Source of the DNA: Promethearchaeum syntrophicum
Lineage (GTDB): Archaea; Asgardarchaeota; Lokiarchaeia; Sigyniarchaeales; Promethearchaeaceae
Length of the DNA stretch: 32,000 bases
Direction: 5' to 3'
Assembly (NCBI RefSeq): GCF_008000775.2
Contig: NZ_CP042905.2
Span: forward strand, 1,200,001-1,232,000
Below the pieces are notes generated by a model. It was given only the letters and a program-made list of their open reading frames with translations, was not told the DNA's origin and did no database searches. Made by a program: the position numbers and the translations under genes. The stretch's first letter is position 1. Every line of letters starts with the position of its first letter. This document shows, piece after piece, positions 1,927 to 18,028 of this stretch.

Positions 1927-2832
1927 ATGACTTTTTCAATCGTAGCTTTTGATCCCAAAACGGGGGATTTAGGCGTTGCCGTTCAAAGTAAGTTTCCATG
2001 TGTCGGATCAGTGGTTCCTTGGGCAAAAGCTAATGTAGGAGCCATAGCAACTCAAGCATTTGTGAATACCACCTATGGTCCGATGGGTTTAAAACTCCTT
2101 GAAGAAGGATATTCTGCTAGTGAAGTGCTATCAAAACTTCTAAAAGATGATGATTTACGTGAACAACGGCAAGTGGGTATAATTGATGCTAAAGGAAATG
2201 CCGTAGCATTTACGGGAAAAGAATGTTTTTATTGGGCTGGGCAAGTAGTTGGAGAGAATTTTAGTTGTCAAGGAAATATTCTGGTTAGTGATGAAACCGT
2301 CAGAAGTATGGCTGAAGCTTTTAAAGAAACGGAGGGAGATCTTGCAGATAAATTATTAGCTGTTTTATCTGCGGCCGATGAAGAAGGTAGGGGAGATGTT
2401 CGAGGAAAACAGTCTGCAAATTTATTAATTGTTAGGGAAAAAGGGGGATATGGTGGTTATACTGATATAATGGTCGATATTAGGGTAGATGATCATAAAG
2501 AACCAATAAAGGAACTCAAACGGATATTTCATATATATGATATGATAATGCTTGAACGAGAAGATCCAATGAACTTAATTAAAATCGAAGGTGATGTTTC
2601 TCTAAATATAAAGCGTGTTCTTATTGAGTTGGGATATTTAAAAAAAGATCCAAATAAAATTTCGGACCTATGGGAGGAAATAGATAGTAAGGCTTTTGAA
2701 AATTGGATTGGTATTAATAATTATGAAAACAAATGGAAAACTGATGGGACTGTTTGGAAATCAGTTTATAATTACTTAATTAAAGAAAAAGGCACCCCAA
2801 TGGTTCAACTTAAAAAAATGTCTGAGATTTAA
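1927..2832 (+). CDS. DUF1028 family protein (Ntn-hydrolase-like) with C-terminal putative peptidoglycan-binding-type helical domain
   Basis: MTFSIVAFDPKTGDLGVAVQSKFPCVGSVVPWAKANVGAIATQAF matches the conserved N-terminus of DUF1028 proteins as I recall it. The tail IKRVLIELGYLKKDP...AFENWIGINNYENKW resembles the PG_binding-like domain that often ends this family. Confidence 0.75.
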   Translation: MTFSIVAFDPKTGDLGVAVQSKFPCVGSVVPWAKANVGAIATQAFVNTTYGPMGLKLLEEGYSASEVLSKLLKDDDLREQRQVGIIDAKGNAVAFTGKECFYWAGQVVGENFSCQGNILVSDETVRSMAEAFKETEGDLADKLLAVLSAADEEGRGDVRGKQSANLLIVREKGGYGGYTDIMVDIRVDDHKEPIKELKRIFHIYDMIMLEREDPMNLIKIEGDVSLNIKRVLIELGYLKKDPNKISDLWEEIDSKAFENWIGINNYENKWKTDGTVWKSVYNYLIKEKGTPMVQLKKMSEI

Positions 2833-3838
2833 AATCTGTTTTTTTTCCCATTATTTCTAAACCCCCATAATTACTTTGGTCTCTAAAAACTAGCTCATAG
2901 TTTTTATCCGGATTATAATTCTTATTCTTTTTTAAAAAAGTGATTTTTAATTGTGCTTTAATAGTTTCTGCGCATTTTGCTGTCATTTGTCCTTTGATGG
3001 GAGCTTTCATTAAACCGGTGGAAATTATCGGATTTTTACTTTTTGAGGCTTGAATATAAAGCAAATATTTAGGAGAATGCACAATAATTTTGCATAATTC
3101 TGGAGATATCGTTTCAATTCGATATTGACTTAAATTATATGTTGCAAACCGATGAAATTCTCCTTTATCATATAAAACGCACAAAAAACCTGTGAATTGT
3201 ATCCCTAAATAATTTATTTGTGCAATAGAAAGCATAAAAGATCTCTCTGATTCTTCAAAATGATTTCCTTGCATCCATATCCATTTTTTTGGAAAAGAAT
3301 CTCCCCAATCTTTTTCAATATATCCTTTTCCACCAGCAAATGAAATTTTATTGTTATTATATTTTAAATCACCAAGGATTCCATGGTTCATCGATACAAT
3401 CCCGTGATAACATTCCATTTTGGGTAAATATGAAAATATTCCCATAATTCCAGAATTTATGCCATGAAAGGGTATTGGGTTTAAATTTTCAAATTTAAGG
3501 GTTCCTTTTAACTGAATTACGGCAGATTGAACATCAATGTGAATAAATTTTTTCGAAAAATAGTTCTTGCCAATTTTAATTTCAAATATATTCTTCTTTG
3601 TACTGAAATCTGAAATTGGAAACGTTAAATAATAATATTTTGCTGTTATTCCATCCAATATTTGAATAAATGCATGAGAATTAGATTCTTGGGAATTTAA
3701 AGCAATACCGGGAATTATTGCTAAGATAGTTTTTTTCGTAAAATCAACAATTTTAAAATACCACCCTTCAAAATATTGCTTTTTTTGAAATTTTCCTTGA
3801 AAAATAGAAGGATTTTGAATTTGGAAGAAACTCTTCAT
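2810..3838 (-). CDS. tocopherol cyclase (VTE1) family protein
   Basis: Collinear motif matches to plant VTE1, recalled from memory. YFEGWYFKI matches [33 protein letters not shown] matches [37 protein letters not shown] matches LVCVHYDGKMYEF. GGLEIMG matches AAVEIGGG. Confidence 0.8.
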   Translation of the reverse strand: [342 protein letters not shown]

Positions 3839-5078: not shown

Positions 5079-7313
5079 CTATGTGTTCTTAAAACTGTAT
5101 CCTCTTGGAGCACTTCTGGAATATTTTAAATATCCTTGCTTTTTCAAAATATCAAATAATTGTTCAGGGCTATAATTACCATGAAGAGTTAGTTCAAATT
5201 CAAATTTATTTAGAACTGCGTTCTTTGAGGTCATAATCTTGGTTTTTTCAAATATTTTTTTCACCTGCATTAAAATTACATCTTCTATTCGGGTTTCAGA
5301 TTCTATTTTTTCTGCAGTAACTTCTTCCGGGATGATTTCCTTTAAATTTTTTCCTTCAATATAATGGTATCCTCTTGGTTTTTTCGCAGAATAAGAGATT
5401 ATAGATCGATCTTTTAAGATTTTTAATAATTTTTCTGCAAGGTTCGTTCCTAAATTAAATTTGTCAAATTCTTCAAATATTTTTGCTTTAGAAGATATAA
5501 ATTGTTGATCGCGAAATATTTTCCTTCCTTCTTCTATCATTTCATCGGTAATTGTAGGTTTTAAAGCAACTTTTACAAGTGTCGAAGGTTCTTCTGAACC
5601 GATAAATGTATATCCTCGGGGTGCTGAACGAGAGTAAGTTAAAAACATTTTCGATTTGAAATAATCAAATATTGGACTGATTTCTATTTCTGGGATATCA
5701 TTATTCCGTAATAAATTAATTAAAATCGCTTTTGAAGCAAAAAATCGTTCTTTTTCTAATATAGATTGCGCTTTCTCAAGCATTGGACTTTCAATTATTT
5801 TTTGGATAGTCCTGGTTTTGATAGGCGCTTTTGGTTTCGAAATAGTATCACTTGGAGATGTTTGATCTACTAAATAGTACCCACGGGGATTTGCACGTTG
5901 GTACCTAATTATTTCATGTTCTTTTAAATTATTAAAAAATTTATTCGCTTGTACTCCGTCAAGTCCTCCCGAAGCAAAAGCTGCGAATAATTTTGCTTTT
6001 GTTTCAAAATATTCTACATCATTAAAAATTGTTGGAATTAATTCAGACTGGGGAATTTCTGTCGAATATCTTCTAATTCTTTTAGCATTTCCTGCCGAAG
6101 CTGATTCAAATTCATCGTTTGATGCTGCGATCTCTGACTGTGACTCATCCGCCGCGAGAGCATAAGCGGAGTCATTGCCCGTACTGAAAAGAGAAGCAAC
6201 TTCTTCAGTTTCACCCTCAATTGGAACAGGGTGGAATGGTGCTGCCATTAATGGTTCTAAAATTTCTGACCCATAATGGAAATCATTTATAATATTAATT
6301 GCATAATCATAACCCGCAAAAATAATATCCTTTTCTGAATTTAATGTAAAATCTGTTGTTAATATCCTGTTTATAACTCCGTGTATTTTATATCGCCATC
6401 TTCTGCGAATTTGAGATAACAATGCATCGGGGAATTCAAATGAAATTAAAAAAGCTGACCCCATTCCAAGTAATACCTCATTTCGAGAATTTCCATTGAT
6501 ATCAGAAATTAAAATTGAAGTAATACGATCTTCTACGGGGGTTTTTAGAATAATGTTACCATACATATCTAAGAAATACAAATTTTTATCATTTCCACCA
6601 GTTACAATATACGGATATCCTGAAGAATCTAAAATCCCAATATCACAAGCTAGAAGCGGTTTTTCTCCTGAAAATTCCCAAATTAGGGTGCCATTAAGAG
6701 AATTTAGAACTGATAATCCTCCTTCTTTAAATATAATAACTATTTCTAAACGATTGTTCCATAAAACATCTGCAATTTTTACGGATTGGATTCTAAAAGG
6801 TAACTCTTTACGCCATAGTTCTTCTAAACCACTTTCAGTAAGAGAAAATACTCGTAAAGTTTTGTCCCAAGAGCCTGCAATGATTTCTAAATTAGAATCC
6901 CCATTTAGATCGGCAGTAGTACAGCTATTTACGAAATTTTCAAACGTTTCAGAACAAAATTCGAAAAAGTTCTTTGTTTCTTCGTCAAATTTTAGAACTC
7001 TTAAAGTATTATCTCCTAAACCAATTATGATTTCAGATTTCCCATTTTTTGTTAGATCTGCGGTAGACACACATCTAACCCATGTTGAAAATTCAATTTT
7101 TTGAAAAATTTCTAACCTGTTAAAATTTAAAATATACAAGTTATTATCTTGATTGGCAACTGCTATGAATTTATCCCTTTCATTCTCTCCGATCGAAACT
7201 ATAGCGGCATCCCTAATAACACTGGGTAATTTTTTACGGAGAATAGAATGAATATGTTGCACAATCATCGATTTTTCATGACCTCGATTTTCAGTAGAGA
7301 CGGTTCTTTCCAT
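5079..7313 (-). CDS. cytoplasmic 7-blade FG-GAP/WD40-like beta-propeller protein with acidic linker and four C-terminal winged-helix-like repeats
   Basis: Seven blade-like units, e.g. ADLTKNGKSEIIIGLGDNTLRVLKF, ADLNGDSNLEIIAGSWDKTLRVFSL, LDSSGYPYIVTGGNDKNLYFLDM and SDINGNSRNEVLLGMGSAF. I see no signal peptide. The C-terminal third holds four repeats, each ending in Y-(S/Q)-(R/A)-x-x-P-R-G-Y. Confidence 0.75.
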   Translation of the reverse strand: MERTVSTENRGHEKSMIVQHIHSILRKKLPSVIRDAAIVSIGENERDKFIAVANQDNNLYILNFNRLEIFQKIEFSTWVRCVSTADLTKNGKSEIIIGLGDNTLRVLKFDEETKNFFEFCSETFENFVNSCTTADLNGDSNLEIIAGSWDKTLRVFSLTESGLEELWRKELPFRIQSVKIADVLWNNRLEIVIIFKEGGLSVLNSLNGTLIWEFSGEKPLLACDIGILDSSGYPYIVTGGNDKNLYFLDMYGNIILKTPVEDRITSILISDINGNSRNEVLLGMGSAFLISFEFPDALLSQIRRRWRYKIHGVINRILTTDFTLNSEKDIIFAGYDYAINIINDFHYGSEILEPLMAAPFHPVPIEGETEEVASLFSTGNDSAYALAADESQSEIAASNDEFESASAGNAKRIRRYSTEIPQSELIPTIFNDVEYFETKAKLFAAFASGGLDGVQANKFFNNLKEHEIIRYQRANPRGYYLVDQTSPSDTISKPKAPIKTRTIQKIIESPMLEKAQSILEKERFFASKAILINLLRNNDIPEIEISPIFDYFKSKMFLTYSRSAPRGYTFIGSEEPSTLVKVALKPTITDEMIEEGRKIFRDQQFISSKAKIFEEFDKFNLGTNLAEKLLKILKDRSIISYSAKKPRGYHYIEGKNLKEIIPEEVTAEKIESETRIEDVILMQVKKIFEKTKIMTSKNAVLNKFEFELTLHGNYSPEQLFDILKKQGYLKYSRSAPRGYSFKNT
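5082..6020 (-). repeat. 4 in-frame tandem protein repeats of about 81-90 aa (periods 267/243/270 nt)
   Basis: The PRGY Tyr codons sit at 5877, 5610, 5367 and 5097. The repeat ends read IIRYQRANPRGYYLV, FLTYSRSAPRGYTFI, IISYSAKKPRGYHYI and YLKYSRSAPRGYSFK. Each is preceded by a helical F-x-(S/T)-K-A/N-x-(L/I) segment. Confidence 0.8.
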
Positions 7314-8589: not shown

Positions 8590-9675
<1,086 letters not shown>

Positions 9676-9809: not shown

Positions 9810-11903
9810 ATGGAAGTGCTTATCAGTTTCATAATAAAAAATCTTGAAGGCTATACCGATCGGAAAATTCAGAAAGATTTTCCTGAAGATATGCTTTTTA
9901 TCGAGGTATTAAATGAAATCCTAAAAATAATAAATGGTAATATCACTTTGGACAAAATTTCAGTGATTTCAGCGATGAAAGGTCTATTTTCCTATGAAGA
10001 TGCTCGAAAAACTGTAAAAGAAATTGTTGCTATGCATTTATTTGAATTTACAATTACGAAGAGAGATTTAGTTAACGGACCCAACTTGATGTTAAAAGAA
10101 ATAACCTCAACCCAACCTGAAGAAGATTCTTCAAAAGGAATGCAATATGGATACTTAAAACCTAAAATTGAATCCAAACCAACTCCTCAACCAGATTTTA
10201 TTCAAGAACCAGTTCACATTCAAGAACTTGTTCCAGAACCAACTCAAGAAATTAAATCTCTTGAGTCTGAAATTATTGGTGAAAAATTAAGTGATATAGG
10301 TGCAATCGGAGGAAAAAAAGACACATCAGAAGTAGAATTGTTTTTTGCTGAAAAGAAAGAAAGAAAAAAGGTAAAAAATGAAATATTAGATGCAAAAGAA
10401 GCAATAGATAGAATGGATGATATGTTAAAAGAATCACCAGTAGAAGATCTGCTTTATAAAGCAAAGAAAGAAACTAAATTAACCGTTGATGATAGTTTAG
10501 AAGATAAATTAAAAAAGTCAGAAGAAAAAGATTTGAAATTATCCACTCATGCTCCTTCTGCTCCCGCAAGTCCACCTGCTAGTCCGCCTAAATCTCTCCC
10601 CCTATCGTCTGGATCTGCTCCACCACCACCTGGATCTGCGCCTAAATCACCTCAAACCCTTCGTGGTGGAATGACAGAAGAATTAAAAACTTTATTCTCA
10701 AAAACGAAGGAAGAGGAAACGGTTGAACCTCCTGCGGAACCTGCTGCTGATCTTTTTGCTCGTCATCATATGTCAAAAAGGAAACCTAAGTTATCTACTG
10801 AATCTGTTTCTGAATCTGCTCCTGAACGACGACGTGACTCATCAAAACCTTCACCTAAAAAATCTTTTCCTCCTCCCTCTCCGTCACCTCCTCCTCCTTC
10901 TCCAGAACCTGCTGTTACATCAGCAAGCTCTCAACCATTTTCAATTAAGCAAAAAAAGAAAGGTAAAAAAATGGGAGCAAGAATGAGGTCTTTAGCTGTT
11001 AAAACTGAAGAAGTTGAAGAGACTGCTATCAGTTTAGGTGAAAAAATTAAGGAAAAGAAAATCGCGGATGATTTTGATAATGATTTTGGAGCTGTAGAAG
11101 AAAGAGAAGAAGAAGTGTTAGAAAATTTCATGGAAACAAAGGTTCCAACAGAATTCCCTCCGTCTCAAGAATCTACAATATTGCCTGAAATGGCCGGATT
11201 AGCTAAAGAAATTGAGACTTCAAAGGAATATCAAAAAAATATCGCAATTGAATATTTTGATAAAATGAACCCAAAGAAATATTACCCTCTTCTTATCGAT
11301 ATCTCAGATTTAGAGCAAGCAACCACTATTAGCGAGGAAAATATCCTCACTGGAGAACGAAAGGTTCAGGTAAAAGAAACAATGGCTGTTGTTCTTAAAA
11401 GTAGTATTGTTAAAGTCAAACCGATGTTCCCCGGATGTAGCATTGTCCCCGAAGAAAGATATACTGACCTTGATGAGAAAGAAGATAAACTGACTTTTTA
11501 CGTTACTCCACTTGTGGATGATGAAATTGAAGCAGGTCGGATTGAATTTATCGATAGTGAAGGAAACATATTCCATTCTGCTCCCACACCAACAAAAGTC
11601 GAAGATCCTAGATATGCAAGGGTAATTGCATTATATGGTGGTCTAGCAAGTTTTCTTCCTAAAATTTTAGAGGGTTTAGGTTTTAGCTTTACCGAAGATA
11701 CGAATATAGCCACTCTCCTTCCATTTTTGCAATCAGTTCTTGGTGATATGAATCTTTCCAATTTTATCGGAATATCTGGAATACTAATCACAATTATCAT
11801 TTGCATAATCACTGTGATAGTTAGAAAACCGAATTCGGTTAAGAAAAAGTTTAAAGTCGCGCGAGTTGGTAGGTTAAAATCCGCAACTAAGGCGGTAAAG
11901 TAG
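9810..11903 (+). CDS. tail-anchored, largely disordered proline-rich protein of unknown function
   Basis: Small N-terminal globular region. EPVHIQELVPEPT spacer motif at nt 10203-10250. K/E-rich coiled-coil-like segment. Pro-rich block 1 APSAPASPPASPPKSLPLSSGSAPPPPGSAPKSP (nt ~10551-10650). Pro-rich block 2 FPPPSPSPPPPSPEP (nt ~10861-10915). Beta-rich C-terminal domain. A single C-terminal TM span FIGISGILITIIICIITVIV (nt ~11763-11822) is followed by a basic tail. Confidence 0.7.
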   Translation: MEVLISFIIKNLEGYTDRKIQKDFPEDMLFIEVLNEILKIINGNITLDKISVISAMKGLFSYEDARKTVKEIVAMHLFEFTITKRDLVNGPNLMLKEITSTQPEEDSSKGMQYGYLKPKIESKPTPQPDFIQEPVHIQELVPEPTQEIKSLESEIIGEKLSDIGAIGGKKDTSEVELFFAEKKERKKVKNEILDAKEAIDRMDDMLKESPVEDLLYKAKKETKLTVDDSLEDKLKKSEEKDLKLSTHAPSAPASPPASPPKSLPLSSGSAPPPPGSAPKSPQTLRGGMTEELKTLFSKTKEEETVEPPAEPAADLFARHHMSKRKPKLSTESVSESAPERRRDSSKPSPKKSFPPPSPSPPPPSPEPAVTSASSQPFSIKQKKKGKKMGARMRSLAVKTEEVEETAISLGEKIKEKKIADDFDNDFGAVEEREEEVLENFMETKVPTEFPPSQESTILPEMAGLAKEIETSKEYQKNIAIEYFDKMNPKKYYPLLIDISDLEQATTISEENILTGERKVQVKETMAVVLKSSIVKVKPMFPGCSIVPEERYTDLDEKEDKLTFYVTPLVDDEIEAGRIEFIDSEGNIFHSAPTPTKVEDPRYARVIALYGGLASFLPKILEGLGFSFTEDTNIATLLPFLQSVLGDMNLSNFIGISGILITIIICIITVIVRKPNSVKKKFKVARVGRLKSATKAVK

Positions 11904-12065: not shown

Positions 12066-12251
12066 TTAATCTTTATCCCATGACCATTCTATTCCACACT
12101 TACCACAGATATATTTTTTTGCAAAAATTACTGGATAATCCATTATCTGATGAGTTTTGTCATCTACTTCTCTAATCATATTCCGGGTATAATTTCCACA
12201 CTTTGGGCACTCTAATCGAGAGCCTCCTTTCTGAACAAATTTTTCGCTCAT
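12066..12251 (-). CDS. stand-alone zinc-ribbon protein, paralog of the gelsolin protein's C-terminal domain
   Basis: CPKCGN ...30 aa... CGKCGIEW. It shares 33 identical positions of 56 in my ungapped hand alignment with aa 295-354 of the 8611-9675 product (VQKG..RL.CP.CGN....MIREV.D.T...MDYP.I..KKYICG.CG.EW). Confidence 0.75.
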   Translation of the reverse strand: MSEKFVQKGGSRLECPKCGNYTRNMIREVDDKTHQIMDYPVIFAKKYICGKCGIEWSWDKD

Positions 12252-12447: not shown

Positions 12448-13002
12448 TTAGTTTGGTTTTTGAATTTCAATGTGGTAGATTCTTTCTATTTCCGGATGAA
12501 TTGAACCTCCCACAACACAAGTTTTTTTAGCTTTTTCTGCGATTTTTTCAATTTTTTCCATTGGTTCTTCTGTAATTAGCTTGGATGTAATTACAAATGA
12601 TTTTACACGGGCTGGAATAATGCCAAGGCTATATCTACGATCAATTAATGCGGAGATATGGACGCGAACATCCTTTACATTAAGGTTATATGCTGTGATA
12701 TAAAATAACCAATTAGTTTCCAGACAGCTTGCAAAAGCGCTGATTAACATTTGAACAGCATTCATGGCCGTGTTATCACCCGCTATACTTAAAGGTTCAT
12801 CAAGTTTTGCGGAATGCTCACCGGCTATAACACTCAATTGAAAATTTTCGATTTGAGTAGATGTAACTTCATATTTAGTTTCAAAGGGGGTAGAATCTAT
12901 GGTTTTATTGAGTCGGTCTGAGTGGTTTATTTCGTTATGAATTTTTTTAAGTTCAGTGAAATTCTTTTTCATCTTGGCAATTCTGGCAGATTCGATTAGC
13001 AT
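12448..13002 (-). CDS. OsmC/Ohr-family (OsmC-like) protein
   Basis: LSVIAGEHSAKLDEPLSIAGDNTAMNAVQMLISAFASC matches the OsmC core (..DEP...GG....P.ELLLAALA.C). The second conserved Cys context is KKTCVVGGSI. The true start may be an internal Met. Confidence 0.65.
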   Translation of the reverse strand: MLIESARIAKMKKNFTELKKIHNEINHSDRLNKTIDSTPFETKYEVTSTQIENFQLSVIAGEHSAKLDEPLSIAGDNTAMNAVQMLISAFASCLETNWLFYITAYNLNVKDVRVHISALIDRRYSLGIIPARVKSFVITSKLITEEPMEKIEKIAEKAKKTCVVGGSIHPEIERIYHIEIQKPN

Positions 13003-13144
13003 ATTAATTGATTAGATTAAAGTAGCATAAAATTTAAAGTTCAAAGGTTTTTTAAAAGAAAACATCAGAAATGTAAAATAAACCTTAAATTTTCTCTAGT
13101 TATTCAAGAACTTGAAATGAATTAAATTAAGGAGTGATTAAAAA

Positions 13145-13372
13145 ATGGTTGAAATAAATTTGGATATAACTAATAAAGTATGCCCTTTTTGTTTGTTGTT
13201 AGTGAAAAAGAAGCTAGCACCCATGATGAAAAATGATATTCTAATTGTGAAATGTGATCATCCGCCAGCAGCCACTGACACAATTCCATATGCTATGAAA
13301 AAAGCTCATTATCCTTGCGAATCAAAACTGTTGGAAAGCGGATTATGGGAGTTAAAAATAACCAAAAAATAG
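13145..13372 (+). CDS. TusA/SirA-like sulfur-carrier family protein
   Basis: LDITNKVCPFCLLLVKKKLAPMMKNDILIVKCDHPPAATDTIPYAMKK resembles TusA LDARGLRCPEPVMMVRKTV...LLIIADDPATTRDIP, including the conserved Cys-Pro. A GGAG-type SD is present (aaggagtgattaaaaaATG). Confidence 0.6.
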   Translation: MVEINLDITNKVCPFCLLLVKKKLAPMMKNDILIVKCDHPPAATDTIPYAMKKAHYPCESKLLESGLWELKITKK

Positions 13373-13383
13373 AGAATAATGAA

Positions 13384-14289
13384 TTAATTAAAATCAAAAA
13401 ATAGTTTTAGTCCTTCACTTTGAATAAAACCAAAGTTTTTAATAAGAAGATTGAGAAGTTCTAATAATTCTTGACCGCGTTGCAGCGTTTTCTCGTCTGT
13501 TTTAATATATTTATATTTTGGGGTTCCTGCTCTGGCTTTTTTTCTTAGAAATAGTTGATTTATTATTTCCTCCAATGTTATGCCTTTCACGGTAGACTTC
13601 GTATCGAAAAATAATGAGAAGATCACTTCTTTTTCCAGATCATTTTCCACAAGTGCATTTATTATCATTTGAATGCGATTTAATAAAACAGTTTTTTGAA
13701 GTAATGCTTCTTTTCGTTTTTTTTCGATAACGGTTATTTCCTTTTCAACAGTATGCAGTTGTTGCCCTAATGCTTTTAAGGAAAAATTTAACTGCGTATA
13801 ATCCATTCTAGATCGGGAGGAAGAGGTAATGGCTGTTTTCGGATCATGATTTAAAACATCCATCGCGTCTGCTAAATCTGATGGAGTATTTTCGCACTGC
13901 AAGGAGAAATAATTTGGAGTTAAATCAATTTTGGAAAAAATTGCAATTTGATTAGAGATCTGGTAATATTGTTTTTTCTGATCGGTTTGAGAAAGTGATA
14001 TTTCAATAATTCCAAATTCAACCAGCTTATCTAAATGTTTTTTAATAGCTTGCTTAGAAACTCCAAGATCAATTGCAAGATCGGAAGCGAACCTTGGAAA
14101 TTTGGAAAGTTTGGAAAGAATTTTTCTTCTAATATCGTTACCAATTAATTCAAAAAACATTTCATCATTAAACGACCCATCATTTCTTAACATCTTCTCT
14201 CTCCTTCCCGGAAATACCATTGGGACAGTTGAGGTTGGTTCTAGTTTTTTTTTATTCTTTTTTATTTCCACTTCTCTTTTCTTAGCCAT
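13384..14289 (-). CDS. ArsR-type winged-helix transcription regulator with long coiled-coil C-terminal extension (Phr-like architecture)
   Basis: The wHTH region IGNDIRRKILSKLSKFPRFASDLAIDLGVSKQAIKKHLDKLVEFGIIE fits the ArsR pattern. The C-terminal half (QLHTVEKEITVIEKKRKEALLQKTVLLNRIQMIINAL) looks coiled-coil. Confidence 0.7.
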   Translation of the reverse strand: MAKKREVEIKKNKKKLEPTSTVPMVFPGRREKMLRNDGSFNDEMFFELIGNDIRRKILSKLSKFPRFASDLAIDLGVSKQAIKKHLDKLVEFGIIEISLSQTDQKKQYYQISNQIAIFSKIDLTPNYFSLQCENTPSDLADAMDVLNHDPKTAITSSSRSRMDYTQLNFSLKALGQQLHTVEKEITVIEKKRKEALLQKTVLLNRIQMIINALVENDLEKEVIFSLFFDTKSTVKGITLEEIINQLFLRKKARAGTPKYKYIKTDEKTLQRGQELLELLNLLIKNFGFIQSEGLKLFFDFN

Positions 14290-14329
14290 ATTGTTGACCT
14301 GAATTTGTCTGTTGAAATTAATTTTCTAT

Positions 14330-16558
14330 TTACATATATAAATCCTTTGAAAGTGCACCGTCTAGTTTTTGATATGCCTTCTCAGAACGCTTAGATGATT
14401 TAATTACAGAATTAATCGCTGTATCAAAATGAGTTTTTTTGATTTTCACAGAGTCTTTATCATCATCAGAAATATCCTTGAAATCTCCCTTTGAAATATA
14501 ATCTCGTATAGCAGCTTGAACTGATTCTTTGCATAAGGATTCAATATCTGCTCCTGTTTTTCCTTCCATATCAGATGCTAATGATTTTATATTCACATCA
14601 TTATCTAATGGAAGTCCTCGTAAGTGAATATTAAATATTTTTTCCCGTACTTCAATATTTGGTAAGCCGATTTCAATTTGTTTTTCGAATCTTCCTGCGC
14701 GAATCAGAGCAGGGTCAAGAATGTCAGGACGATTAGTTGCTGCAACTAAAACAACATCTTTTAAACTATTTAATCCATCGATTTCAGTCAGTAATTGGGA
14801 AACAATTCGTTCGGTAACTTGATTACCGCTATTTTTACTTCCCCCTCTTGCTGGTGCTATTGCATCTAATTCATCCATAAAAATAATACAAGGTGCTGCA
14901 GTTCTGGCTTTATGAAATGTCTCTCTGACTTTTTTTTCACTTTCTCCCACCCATTTGGAGAGAAATTCAGGACCTCTGACGGATATAAAATTAATTTCGG
15001 ATTCATGAGCTAAAGCTTTGGCTAAAAGCGTTTTTCCTGTTCCGGGTAATCCATATAGTAAAATACCTTTTACAGGTTTGGCATTTAAAAATTTGTGAAT
15101 ATTCGGAAATTTTAATGGCCATTCGACTGCCTCTTGTAACGCTTGTTTTGCATCATTTAAACCTCCAACATCATTCCAAGTTTCTACTGGAGTAGATATT
15201 AGGACTTCTCGTAATGCAGAGGGTTCGATATTCGCTAAAGCACGCTCAAAATCATTCTGGGTTATTATTAATCTTTCTAAAACTTCAGGAGAAATAACCT
15301 CTTCATCTAAATTTATGTCGGGTAGAATTCTACGTAGTGCAATCATTCCTGCTTCTTTGCATAATGCTTGAAGATCTGCACCAACAAATCCATGTGTCTT
15401 TTCTGAGAGGAATTTCAAGTTTACATCATCCCCAACTGCCATTCCTCGTGTATGAATCTGTAAAATTTCAAGACGCCCGCTTTTATTAGGAACACCAATC
15501 TCTAATTCACGATCAAACCTTCCGGGTCTTCTTAGAGCTTCATCTAGTGCATTTATTCGATTTGTAGCACCGATAACAACCACATTTTCTCTTGCATCTA
15601 ATCCGTCCATGAGAGATAATAATTGTGCAACTACTCGACGTTCTACTTCCCCTTGAACTTCTTCGCGTTTTGGGCTAATGCTATCTATTTCATCAATGAA
15701 AATTATTGCTGGTGCATTTTCTTGTGCTTCTTTAAAAACTCTACGTAAATTCTCTTCTGATTGACCATAAAACTTACTCATTATCTCTGGACCGCTCAGG
15801 GTGATAAAATGCGCATCTGTTTCGTTAGCCACTGCTCTTGCTAATAAAGTTTTGCCCGTTCCTGGAGGACCGTGGAGTAATAATCCTTTTGGTGGTTGAA
15901 TGCCTAATCGATTGAATATTTCTGGATGTCTTAATGGGAGTTCGATCATTTCTCTGGTTTTTTGAATAGCATCTGCAAGACCACCTAAATCTTCATAAGT
16001 TGTTCTTGGAATTACTCTTTCTAGTTCCTTAGTATCTACCGGTCGCTTTAAAATCTCAACTTGTGTGTTTCTGTTAATTTGTACGGCGTCCTTCTTTGGA
16101 GTAAAATTTTTACAAACGAAAAATACAGGACCACTCATTACATCAAAACTGATTAAATCCCCTGCCATGACTACGCGGTTTTCTAACACTTTAGCAAAAA
16201 TATTGGGATTTCTAACATTTATAGGCCTATCTAATGGTGCAAATTGAATAGTTTGAGCGGGATGAACCTCAATTTTCCTAATTAATACCCTTTCATCAAT
16301 GCTAGCTTTTAAATTTAACCTTAAAGAGCCGTCAATTCTGATTATTCCCGAATTTGTATCTTCTGAATAACCATGCATGACCAAGGCAGCAGTTTTTTTA
16401 TTATTTACTGGATTTTTTAATTCTATTCCATCACCAGCGTGAAGATCTAATTCTTTTTGAATTAAAGGATCTAATCTGGCAAAACCTCGACCAGCATCAC
16501 GTCTTCTTGAGTCAGAAATTCTTGCATATACATCTTGATCTTTTTTATCGTGTGGCAT
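14330..16558 (-). CDS. cdc48: Cdc48/VAT/p97-type double-ring AAA+ ATPase
   Basis: Cdc48-N-like start ([25 protein letters not shown]). D1 has Walker A GPPGTGKT and Walker [11 protein letters not shown]2 has GLPGTGKT and IIFMDELDA. The C-terminus ends ...DLYM. I use the ATG at 16558; the listed TTG at 16570 is the alternative. Confidence 0.95.
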
Positions 16559-16572
16559 AATATTGTTCAACT

Positions 16573-17229
16573 TTATTTATTTATTTCTATCTTTGTTTTA
16601 GGCGCGCTTTTTATTTTCTTAAGAAAAATTTCGAGAATACCATCTTTAAAAATTGCCCGAGATCGGATTGGATCAATTTCTGATTGTAATTGGATTGTTC
16701 GGTAGTAATGGGATATATTTCTAGTCCCAAGGGCATAGATGTCCACATCCCATGGCGAAGCCCGTAGTTCTATATCATCTTCCTGCATTCCTGGAACTTC
16801 GATGATTATTACTAATTCCTCTTCACTCTGAAAAAAATCAATAAATGGTTTAGAATCTGCTGATTTGTAATAAACATGATTTCTTTCTACATAATCGAGC
16901 GCTTGAAGGAATTCTTTAAGGGCAATTGGATTAACTTCACTCTCATTTTCAACATTGAATCTGTTCTTTGATCCAGGATTATATGAGATATTAAATGCCC
17001 ATGCTCTTTCTCCATGTGGATAAACTCGGTATAAATCCTTTTTTACCTGAATTTCTTCTTCAGTTAAATTTTCCTCCATAATTGGTTCAAAAAGGTAATC
17101 GAATCTTTTGCCGTCTGTTTCATCGTTAAAAATTTTGTTTAGATTATTAGCGATTTTTTCCTTTAATTCTTGACTAACAAAAAATTCCTTAGCATAATTT
17201 TTAGCGTTTTTCCAGCTCCATTCGGGCAT
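16573..17229 (-). CDS. Hsp20/alpha-crystallin-domain protein with long N-terminal extension
   Basis: C-terminal ACD: EELVIIIEVPGMQEDDIELRASPWDVDIYA...RTIQLQSEIDPIRSRAIFKDGILEIFLKK. It carries the A-x-F/Y-x-(N/D)-G-(V/I)-L-x-I signature. Its stop at 16573 abuts the cdc48 start. Confidence 0.75.
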   Translation of the reverse strand: MPEWSWKNAKNYAKEFFVSQELKEKIANNLNKIFNDETDGKRFDYLFEPIMEENLTEEEIQVKKDLYRVYPHGERAWAFNISYNPGSKNRFNVENESEVNPIALKEFLQALDYVERNHVYYKSADSKPFIDFFQSEEELVIIIEVPGMQEDDIELRASPWDVDIYALGTRNISHYYRTIQLQSEIDPIRSRAIFKDGILEIFLKKIKSAPKTKIEINK

Positions 17230-17342
17230 AAGTTTTTCACATTTTAGACAAATTATTATCGAAACTACTTTTTGTTGCTATGTACCAAAATTACCAAAAA
17301 TCATATTTAAATCAATGTAAAAAAATCTTCTTGCATTTTTAA

Positions 17343-17924
17343 TTAATCAATTTGCAATTTCTTTGCTTTTTTTTTGCTTCGCACGATTTTCTCTAATTCA
17401 ATATCTAGAATCCCATTTGAGTATCTAGCTTTAGCGATACTATTATTTACTGGTACTGGTAATTGGATTATTTTATGATGGTGAGGTGTTTTTATTTCAA
17501 TTTCTCTTGAAGCTGCTTGTAATTGGATGTTATGTTTTTTAACACCAGGAAGTTCAATTATTATTTTGAGCTTCTCATCTTCATCAAAGATATCAAAAAA
17601 TATATCTCTAACCACGTTAAGATTATTTCCATTAGAGATTTCTGGTATTTTACTAGGTAAAATTATATCTTTGCGAAATGCTTCTGTATTATTTAAGAAT
17701 GATCGGTTTGAATTTCCAAATTGTGAAAAATTTGATTGGAACTCCATCATATGTTTCTCTAGTTTTTTTAGTAATTCTGGATTTACAGTCTTTCCGTTAA
17801 TTTTTAATTCGGGTTTATCCATCCCGCTATTGTATGTGTATGACATTGAAAAATCCTTAGAATTCTCAATCGACCCTGAATATTCTTCCAATATCTTTCT
17901 TATTATATCAAATAAATTTTCCAT
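17343..17924 (-). CDS. Hsp20/alpha-crystallin-domain protein, paralog of 16573-17229
   Basis: EKLKIIIELPGVKKHNIQLQAASREIEIKT...HKIIQLPVPVNNSIAKARYSNGILDIELEK. I use the ATG at 17924 (MENLFDII); the listed start at 17942 is TTG. Confidence 0.7.
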   Translation of the reverse strand: MENLFDIIRKILEEYSGSIENSKDFSMSYTYNSGMDKPELKINGKTVNPELLKKLEKHMMEFQSNFSQFGNSNRSFLNNTEAFRKDIILPSKIPEISNGNNLNVVRDIFFDIFDEDEKLKIIIELPGVKKHNIQLQAASREIEIKTPHHHKIIQLPVPVNNSIAKARYSNGILDIELEKIVRSKKKAKKLQID

Positions 17925-18028
17925 TTTTTCTCTCTCTCCCAAAAGACAACTTTTAGTTCACTAATATTATAAGAAATTTCGAATATTTAAATGTTTTTAG
18001 TATAAAAATCAGTTTTCATAATAAAAAA

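Follow-up and report, generated by a model that had tools for sequence, protein, structure and literature searches.

A candidate membrane-tethered adaptor beside the gelsolin gene of Promethearchaeum syntrophicum, and the family defined by its C-terminal module

What is encoded by the large gene directly downstream of the gelsolin gene of the cultured Asgard archaeon Promethearchaeum syntrophicum MK-D1, and is it connected to the actin system of this organism? The gene is located in a stretch of 32,000 nucleotides (contig NZ_CP042905.2, positions 1,200,001 to 1,232,000), which is referred to here as the window and to whose first letter all coordinates relate unless a related contig is named. 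An original prediction, made from the letters of this stretch, had described the product as a tail-anchored protein with a single transmembrane span and polyproline blocks, and as an unannotatable scaffold candidate. We consider it somewhat more probable than not that its product is an adaptor of an undescribed family, tethered to the membrane and facing the cytoplasm.

9810 to 11903, forward strand: whole gene, 697 residues, ATG start (open reading frame call); corresponds to DSAG12_01673, hypothetical protein of P. syntrophicum MK-D1 (100% identity, 100% of the query covered).

The open reading frame (ORF), and all elements that had been listed for it, were found to be present in the order given. 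The label "unannotatable" was appropriate as far as searches of Pfam, NCBIfam and the PDB sequences are concerned, in none of which the protein had a match (in Pfam, the full protein had none at an expectation value (E) of 1 or lower). Moreover, neither terminal domain matched the PDB by sequence or fold, and literature searches for the locus tag DSAG12_01673 and for DUF7363 (see below) retrieved no publication. The label does not extend to the C-terminal module, which defines a large unnamed family. A search with the full-length protein identified only about ten relatives, all of them unnamed proteins from Promethearchaeota-like genomes or metagenomes. In ten full or partial orthologues, both ends are highly conserved and the middle is variable, with mean pairwise identities of 76% (residues 1-98), 44% (99-470), 85% (471-598) and 73% (599-697). 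The fraction of order-promoting residues is 0.19 in the middle, while the folded ends have values of 0.40 and 0.33.

The C-terminal module is made up of five parts:

11223 to 11600, forward strand: immunoglobulin (Ig)-like beta-sandwich, residues 472-597 (AlphaFold, predicted local distance difference test score (pLDDT) 96-98).
11607 to 11675, forward strand: first hydrophobic helix (H1), residues 600-622, proposed first arm of a hairpin (model; hydrophobicity in the family).
11676 to 11753, forward strand: loop free of lysine and arginine (K/R), with short helices, residues 623-648, proposed external or interfacial turn (K/R density).
11754 to 11825, forward strand: strong transmembrane helix (H2), residues 649-672 (Kyte-Doolittle hydrophobicity 2.98; helix in the model).
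11826 to 11900, forward strand: basic tail, residues 673-697, nearly invariant among orthologues (composition, alignment).

The AlphaFold model of this module was built on an alignment of 60 diverse sequences and has a mean pLDDT of 85.9, whereas with the 11 close orthologues alone this value was only 45.6. The predicted layout is that of a long-stranded sandwich, a 23-residue helix, two short helices, a 24-residue helix and the basic tail, with the hydrophobic helices at model residues 141-163 and 190-213. The beta-rich domain proposed earlier is clearly recognizable as the modelled beta-sandwich. The transmembrane span, which had been placed 20 residues from the end, has its hydrophobic core at residues ~651-671 and is followed by 26 residues, 11 of which are K/R. 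Among the 60 diverse members the module is characterized by an FPGCxxxP motif, in which the G, C and P are invariant (G83, C84 and P88 in the alignment), and by a nearly invariant F-x-x-T-P in the sandwich.

Foldseek comparison of the sandwich to the PDB identified ZU5 domains, TRAP subunits (also a sandwich followed by a transmembrane helix), PapD-like domains of Hydin and CARDB domains, all generic Ig-like folds, with a best E of ~1e-3 and query TM-scores (template modelling scores) not above 0.38. Since these matches are generic, only the fold class, an Ig-like sandwich, can be stated. In general layout the protein resembles the VAP proteins, which have a cytoplasmic Ig-like sandwich and a C-terminal hydrophobic membrane anchor; for both, a docking platform for short linear motifs is a plausible role. 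However, the VAP sandwich is N-terminal and a coiled coil precedes the single transmembrane helix, while in the present protein the sandwich abuts two hydrophobic helices and is preceded by a 370-residue disordered linker and another domain. The similarity is not specific either, as the best PapD/MSP-like Foldseek match (2e6j) has an E of 3.8e-3 and a TM-score of 0.27.

An exhaustive search with a profile of the C-terminal 238 residues, counted as cluster representatives, yielded 365 members at E<=1e-3, 125 at E<=1e-10 and 45 at E<=1e-30. The matched stretch covers the beta-sandwich, and the matches are therefore not driven by the transmembrane helices. Named members, each annotated either as "hypothetical" or as "GTPase SAR1 family", are from Promethearchaeota/Lokiarchaeia, Hodarchaeales, Heimdallarchaeota and Planctomycetota. 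In a Pfam scan of 87 full-length members the module itself matched no family. A weak likeness of the sandwich to DUF7363 (PF24063) was seen in a few distant members (three of 60; best E 8.8e-4), but these matches are below the gathering score (19.2 versus 28.3 bits) and the 697-residue protein itself has no such match. This protein does have all the features by which the family is defined here, i.e. the sandwich match, the FPGCxxxP and F-x-x-T-P motifs, the two helices, the K/R-poor loop and the basic tail. On the basis of these sequence comparisons, we regard the module as a previously undescribed, sizeable family, used mainly by Asgard archaea but also by some bacteria.

Almost all members carry the module at the C-terminus; 13 have more than 100 residues after it. 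Among the 87 full-length members, fused Ras/Roc/Arf domains were identified by Pfam in ten, and the other fused domains include STAS, FHA/YscD-cytoplasmic, Pkinase, HATPase_c_2, MshEN, HTH_17 and TPR. The 150 residues preceding the module (115 members) have a median proline content of 14% and contain runs of three or more prolines in 57% of cases. This Pro-rich linker is found independently of the kind of upstream domain, and also in bacterial members. Several Ras-like members (P0155, P0129 and P0115; L010 6001-7785) start at or just before the WDxxGQE motif of switch II, apparently without a P-loop; these could be either mis-called starts or truncated GTPase-like domains.

The arrangement of the module in the membrane can be judged from its composition and from the fused domains. 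The best 19-residue Kyte-Doolittle value of H1 has a median of 1.63 in the family, and is at least 1.6 in 32 of 60 members; for the 697-residue protein it is 1.38. In the 60 members, the K/R density falls from 0.143 before H1 to 0.045 in the loop and rises to 0.27 in the tail. FHA-type domains are present on both sides in one member (P0152), before the module and after the last transmembrane helix, and in three others (P0110, P0154 and P0162) TPR repeats follow the module. The hydrophobicity of H1, the distribution of K/R and the cytoplasmic-type domains found before and after the membrane segment argue that both ends are cytoplasmic. The module most likely forms a hairpin, either transmembrane or monotopic, and not a classical tail anchor. 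Proteins of the latter type (clients of Get3/TRC40) also have no signal peptide and have a strong transmembrane helix less than 30 residues from the C-terminus. Their tail, however, is short and translocatable, whereas that of the present protein has 11 K/R in 26 residues, in line with the high K/R density of the family tail; in addition, a second conserved hydrophobic helix precedes the transmembrane helix, and some family members have cytoplasmic-type domains after it. Of the earlier description as tail-anchored with a single span, the strong transmembrane helix near the C-terminus stands, but the second, weaker hydrophobic helix at residues 600-622 had been overlooked, and a classical tail anchor is doubtful.

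If H2 were the single transmembrane segment, the positive-inside rule applied to its +11 tail would place the 650-residue bulk outside the cell, which conflicts with the missing signal peptide. The protein would then be an extracellular stalk or S-layer-like glycoprotein with a type I anchor and an external Pro-rich region, and a transmembrane helix with a basic tail is indeed a frequent C-terminus of archaeal surface proteins. This is seen in a 704-residue LVIVD-repeat beta-propeller protein encoded in a related contig (L005, 1174-3288), which has a signal peptide, a C-terminal transmembrane helix and a basic tail, and which was used as a reference for a true surface protein. The best 12-residue Kyte-Doolittle value at the N-terminus is 2.96 for this reference but only 1.53 for the 697-residue protein, whose N-terminus has no signal peptide and whose conserved folded N-terminal domain begins at the initiator methionine (Met1). 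There are only two N-x-S/T sequons in the protein, and the domains joined to the module in the family are of the Ras, FHA, STAS, kinase and TPR types, in some members with such domains on either side of the membrane segment. An extracellular stalk is accordingly the most improbable of the explanations that we considered. Most of the protein very probably lies on the cytoplasmic side; the original prediction had claimed the same, and had named an external Pro-rich region as the result that would count against it, a placement against which both the missing signal peptide and the cytoplasmic-type fused domains argue.

The N-terminal domain, which would be exposed to the cytoplasm, comprises:

9810 to 10103, forward strand: conserved alpha/beta domain, residues 1-98, not a signal peptide (76% mean pairwise identity among orthologues).
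10062 to 10088, forward strand: the most conserved motif of this domain, R-x-x-V-N-G-P-N-L, residues 85-93 (alignment).

R85 and L93 in this motif at the end of the domain are invariant, and the motif is retained from Loki to Hod members. The domain co-occurs with the C-terminal module in more distant members from Lokiarchaeia and Hodarchaeota. Profile searches of the N-terminal domain against the PDB and Pfam gave no match. A beta-grasp-like pattern was considered but not supported, as hhalign comparison with the ubiquitin-like N-termini of other family members gave a probability of only 1%.

Between the two folded ends, the following elements could be identified:

10173 to 10247, forward strand: PEP-type spacer, residues 122-146, containing EPVH at residues 133-136.
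10287 to 10544, forward strand: K/E-rich stretch, residues 160-245, with a conserved DAKEAIDRMxxML (alignment).
10548 to 10652, forward strand: Pro block 1, residues 247-281, APSAPASPPASPPKSLPLSSGSAPPPPGSAPKSP (guanine plus cytosine (GC) fraction 0.57).
10659 to 10715, forward strand: conserved short linear motif LRGGMTEELKTLFSKTKEE, residues 284-302, predicted amphipathic helix (alignment).
10863 to 10910, forward strand: Pro block 2, residues 352-367, FPPPSPSPPPPSPEP (GC fraction 0.56).
10944 to 10991, forward strand: conserved polybasic cluster IKQKKKGKKMGARMRS (also written KQKKKGKKMGARMRS), residues 379-394 (alignment).
11004 to 11144, forward strand: acidic stretch, residues 399-445 (composition).

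Proline makes up 11.8% of the 372-residue middle region but 4.0% of 26 other ORFs from the window; charged residues make up 35% of the middle, a composition that fits intrinsic disorder. In the orthologues its length varies from 275 to 393 residues, but it is always Pro-rich (12-16%) and contains one to five runs of three or more prolines. Such runs are retained in all orthologues, so that the loss of the Pro blocks, the other result that had been named as counting against the original prediction, was not observed. Both Pro blocks occur verbatim as quoted earlier, and they are indeed local GC islands (0.57 and 0.56, against 0.319 for the window), which is a trivial consequence of their CCN codons. 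Several positions outside the folded ends are strongly conserved among orthologues: E191, K196, D200, M202 and M205 in the K/E-rich stretch are nearly invariant, as are K384 and K386 in the polybasic cluster, while K382 in the same cluster and P354 and P358 in Pro block 2 are invariant.

The LRGGMTEELKTLFSKTKEE motif is located immediately C-terminal to PPPPGSAPKSP. As the consensus LRGxMTEELKxLF it is present in one to three copies in ten of 11 orthologues, P0002 being the one without. A related LRGEMxxELxxL occurs in linkers of distant members, where comparison with 500 shuffles gave three observed versus 0.02 expected occurrences for a strict pattern and six versus 0.34 for a loose pattern, none of the 500 shuffles reaching the observed count. 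We consider this conserved motif the best candidate for a docking site. Pfam profiles of WH2, RPEL and thymosin gave no match at E<=10, neither with the motif segments nor with the whole middle region. Inspection of the motif as an ESCRT MIM1-like helix showed that the register M/L-x3-L-x2-L fits, but that other residues stand in place of the defining Arg and the terminal basic residue, and this assignment was rejected.

We propose the following arrangement. The sandwich, the two hydrophobic helices and the basic tail would together anchor the protein to the cytoplasmic membrane as a hairpin, in which the N-terminus is inside, the short K/R-poor turn reaches the interface or the outside, and the basic tail returns to the inside. 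The presumably disordered linker of ~370 residues, rich in proline and charged residues, would project the small N-terminal domain into the cytoplasm. Along this linker would lie the acidic stretch, the polybasic cluster and, between Pro runs, the LRGxMTEELKxLF motif. Pro runs would serve mainly as extended spacers, and the conserved motifs and the N-terminal domain would be the likely docking sites for partner proteins. In relatives, the same module would tether Ras/Arf-like GTPases and FHA, STAS, kinase, MshEN and TPR domains. The scaffold-like architecture claimed in the original prediction is supported by the sequence features described above.

The question whether such partners belong to the actin system is raised by the immediate neighbours of the gene:

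8611 to 9675, forward strand: upstream neighbour MKD1-2DGel, with two gelsolin domains, a PEPVxV linker and a C-terminal Zn ribbon (Pfam Gelsolin, 2e-19).
12066 to 12251, reverse strand: downstream neighbour, a free-standing Zn-domain protein of 61 residues (63% identical to the Zn domain of the gelsolin).

MKD1-2DGel has been characterized biochemically as a Ca-dependent actin-severing gelsolin (PMC9433394). The trio of gelsolin gene, family gene and free Zn-domain gene is kept in six related contigs. The gelsolins of these contigs are 90-93% identical, so that the six contigs amount to a single shallow clade with synteny throughout the region. Seven independent distant contexts were inspected, by tblastn (L003/L004 and L009-L011) or from Pfam gene tables (L012-L014). 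No gelsolin or Zn-domain gene was found within 6 kb in any of these, nor is any conserved gene neighbour shared between them. The spacer of 134 base pairs between the gelsolin gene and the family gene has oligo-T runs and, after them, an AT-rich promoter-like stretch, suggesting that the two genes are transcribed separately.

The linker of MKD1-2DGel, a PEPVQV pseudo-repeat, is also of the Pro-rich PEP type and shares the EPVH tetrapeptide with the spacer at residues 122-146; for the PEPVxV spacer the authors predicted an extended structure (PMC9433394). In the gelsolin, however, it is a regular repeat of 18 nucleotides, whereas a single irregular copy is found here. A recent copying of the gelsolin linker into the family gene was ruled out, since the DNA identity of the two is only 63% over 54 nucleotides; the shared tetrapeptide rather appears to reflect similar low-complexity spacers. 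The repeat itself is located at 9319-9480 (~8 tandem copies encoding the PEPVxV linker), and the overlapping ORFs 9064..9492 (reverse strand), 9290..9562 (reverse strand) and 9296..9505 (forward strand) are most likely by-products of this repeat and not genes.

The position next to a gelsolin gene, in all six related contigs, invites the explanation that the polyproline blocks of a classical tail-anchored protein recruit profilin-, SH3- or WW-like readers and thereby, like Ena/VASP, formin FH1 or WASP, organize the assembly of actin at the membrane. As in those proteins, Pro-rich blocks are found beside a short, conserved amphipathic helix, reminiscent of the combination of polyproline and WH2; but no EVH1, FH2 or WH2 domain or motif was detected by Pfam. 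In eukaryotes, profilin ligands of the FH1/VASP type have at least five consecutive prolines (XPPPPP-type). The Pro runs of the 697-residue protein are only three to four long, PPPP being the longest, although PPPPP or PPPPPP occurs in some orthologues. In favour of this explanation, no machinery for actin nucleation has yet been discovered in Asgard archaea (PMC9433394). Loki profilins, however, were reported not to bind the polyproline of VASP, while Heimdall LC3 and Thor profilins bind it weakly (PMC8410842), so that the original prediction was correct on this point. The gelsolin adjacency is confined to close relatives, the spacer argues for separate transcription, and Pro-rich linkers are a trait of the whole family. 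Given this occurrence, including in bacteria, and the PEPVxV spacer of the gelsolin itself, a generic extended spacer is at least as likely a role for the Pro runs, and polyproline-based recruitment by a tail anchor is unlikely.

Another explanation takes the Zn domains as the point of contact, the protein being a docking receptor for the Loki-specific Zn domain of both MKD1-2DGel and the free Zn-domain protein, which would place Ca-regulated severing at the membrane. Genes for these two similar domains flank the family gene in all six close loci, and the Zn domain of the gelsolin was proposed to bind some cellular feature or complex (PMC9433394). This synteny does not extend beyond the shallow clade, and distant members that share the N-terminal domain have no Zn-domain or gelsolin gene within the 6 kb inspected. 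We therefore regard a dedicated Zn-domain receptor as a distinctly unlikely role. A broader variant sees in the protein the membrane-side partner that is still missing from the Asgard actin system: its N-terminal domain or motif would bind the Zn domain(s), or Lokiactin or profilin directly, and the hairpin tether would couple Ca-regulated actin remodelling to the membrane and to protrusions. If this were true, no earlier linker between membrane and actin would be known from an archaeon. This speculative proposal we judge improbable; the link to actin is attractive, but weakly supported.

In two of the seven distant contexts the family gene is found within ~70 base pairs of an intramembrane protease gene: P0019 has a presenilin gene beside it and P0010 an Rce1-like gene (L009 4564-5931 and L003 4636-5934). 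This raises the possibility of regulated intramembrane proteolysis, in which an intramembrane protease would cut the hairpin anchor and free the cytoplasmic part. However, there are only two such cases, they involve different protease families, one of them is on the opposite strand, and there is no such protease gene near 9810..11903. The highly conserved transmembrane helix and tail, moreover, fit a stable functional anchor. A regulated release of this kind seems very improbable for the protein considered here, and the proximity of the protease genes may be a coincidence or a hint of anchor processing.

A cytoplasm-facing, membrane-tethered adaptor is thus the explanation that we favour, but some observations weigh against it. 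The hydrophobicity of H1 in the 697-residue protein is only marginal, K618 and E621 lie within this helix, and it could rest on the membrane surface instead of forming a hairpin arm. As the distant neighbourhoods share nothing, the genomic context provides no functional handle. The domain layout, the family, the fold class and the pattern of conservation are seen directly, and the topology is inferred from composition and fused domains. The adaptor function, finally, is suggested by the architecture and is put forward more weakly than the topology.

The attachment of cytoskeletal and small-GTPase machinery to Asgard membranes is of importance for understanding eukaryogenesis. To our knowledge, the protein-lipidation routes used by eukaryotes for GTPases of the Ras superfamily have not been shown in Asgard archaea. 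The present gene points to a fairly widespread anchor, consisting of a sandwich and a putative hairpin, that may tether small GTPases and signalling domains of Asgard archaea via Pro-rich linkers. Since its gene adjoins that of the one gelsolin of the cultured strain MK-D1 that has been characterized biochemically, the 697-residue protein is a concrete, clonable candidate for interaction tests. The protein would gain greatly in interest if it were shown to interact with profilin, Lokiactin or the Zn domain of the gelsolin; even without an actin link, it is a useful entry to a new family of membrane-tethered scaffolds.

Some features of the surrounding region deserve mention. In one related genome (L005), the gene of the LVIVD-repeat protein is inserted between the gelsolin gene and the family gene. 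Upstream of the gelsolin gene of the window, 5079-7313 (reverse strand) encodes a beta-propeller protein of 744 residues with FG-GAP, BBS7 and BBS2_Mid (BBSome-like) Pfam matches, which is found at the same position in related contigs. The region 2810-3838 (reverse strand) encodes a 342-residue protein with a clear match to the tocopherol cyclase family of Pfam (2e-24), an unexpected family for an anaerobic archaeon. Downstream, the block 12448-17942 (reverse strand) encodes OsmC, an ArsR-type HTH protein, a Cdc48-like AAA ATPase, a 218-residue protein and an ArsA-HSP20-like protein; it is syntenic in related genomes and resembles a stress or proteostasis cluster.

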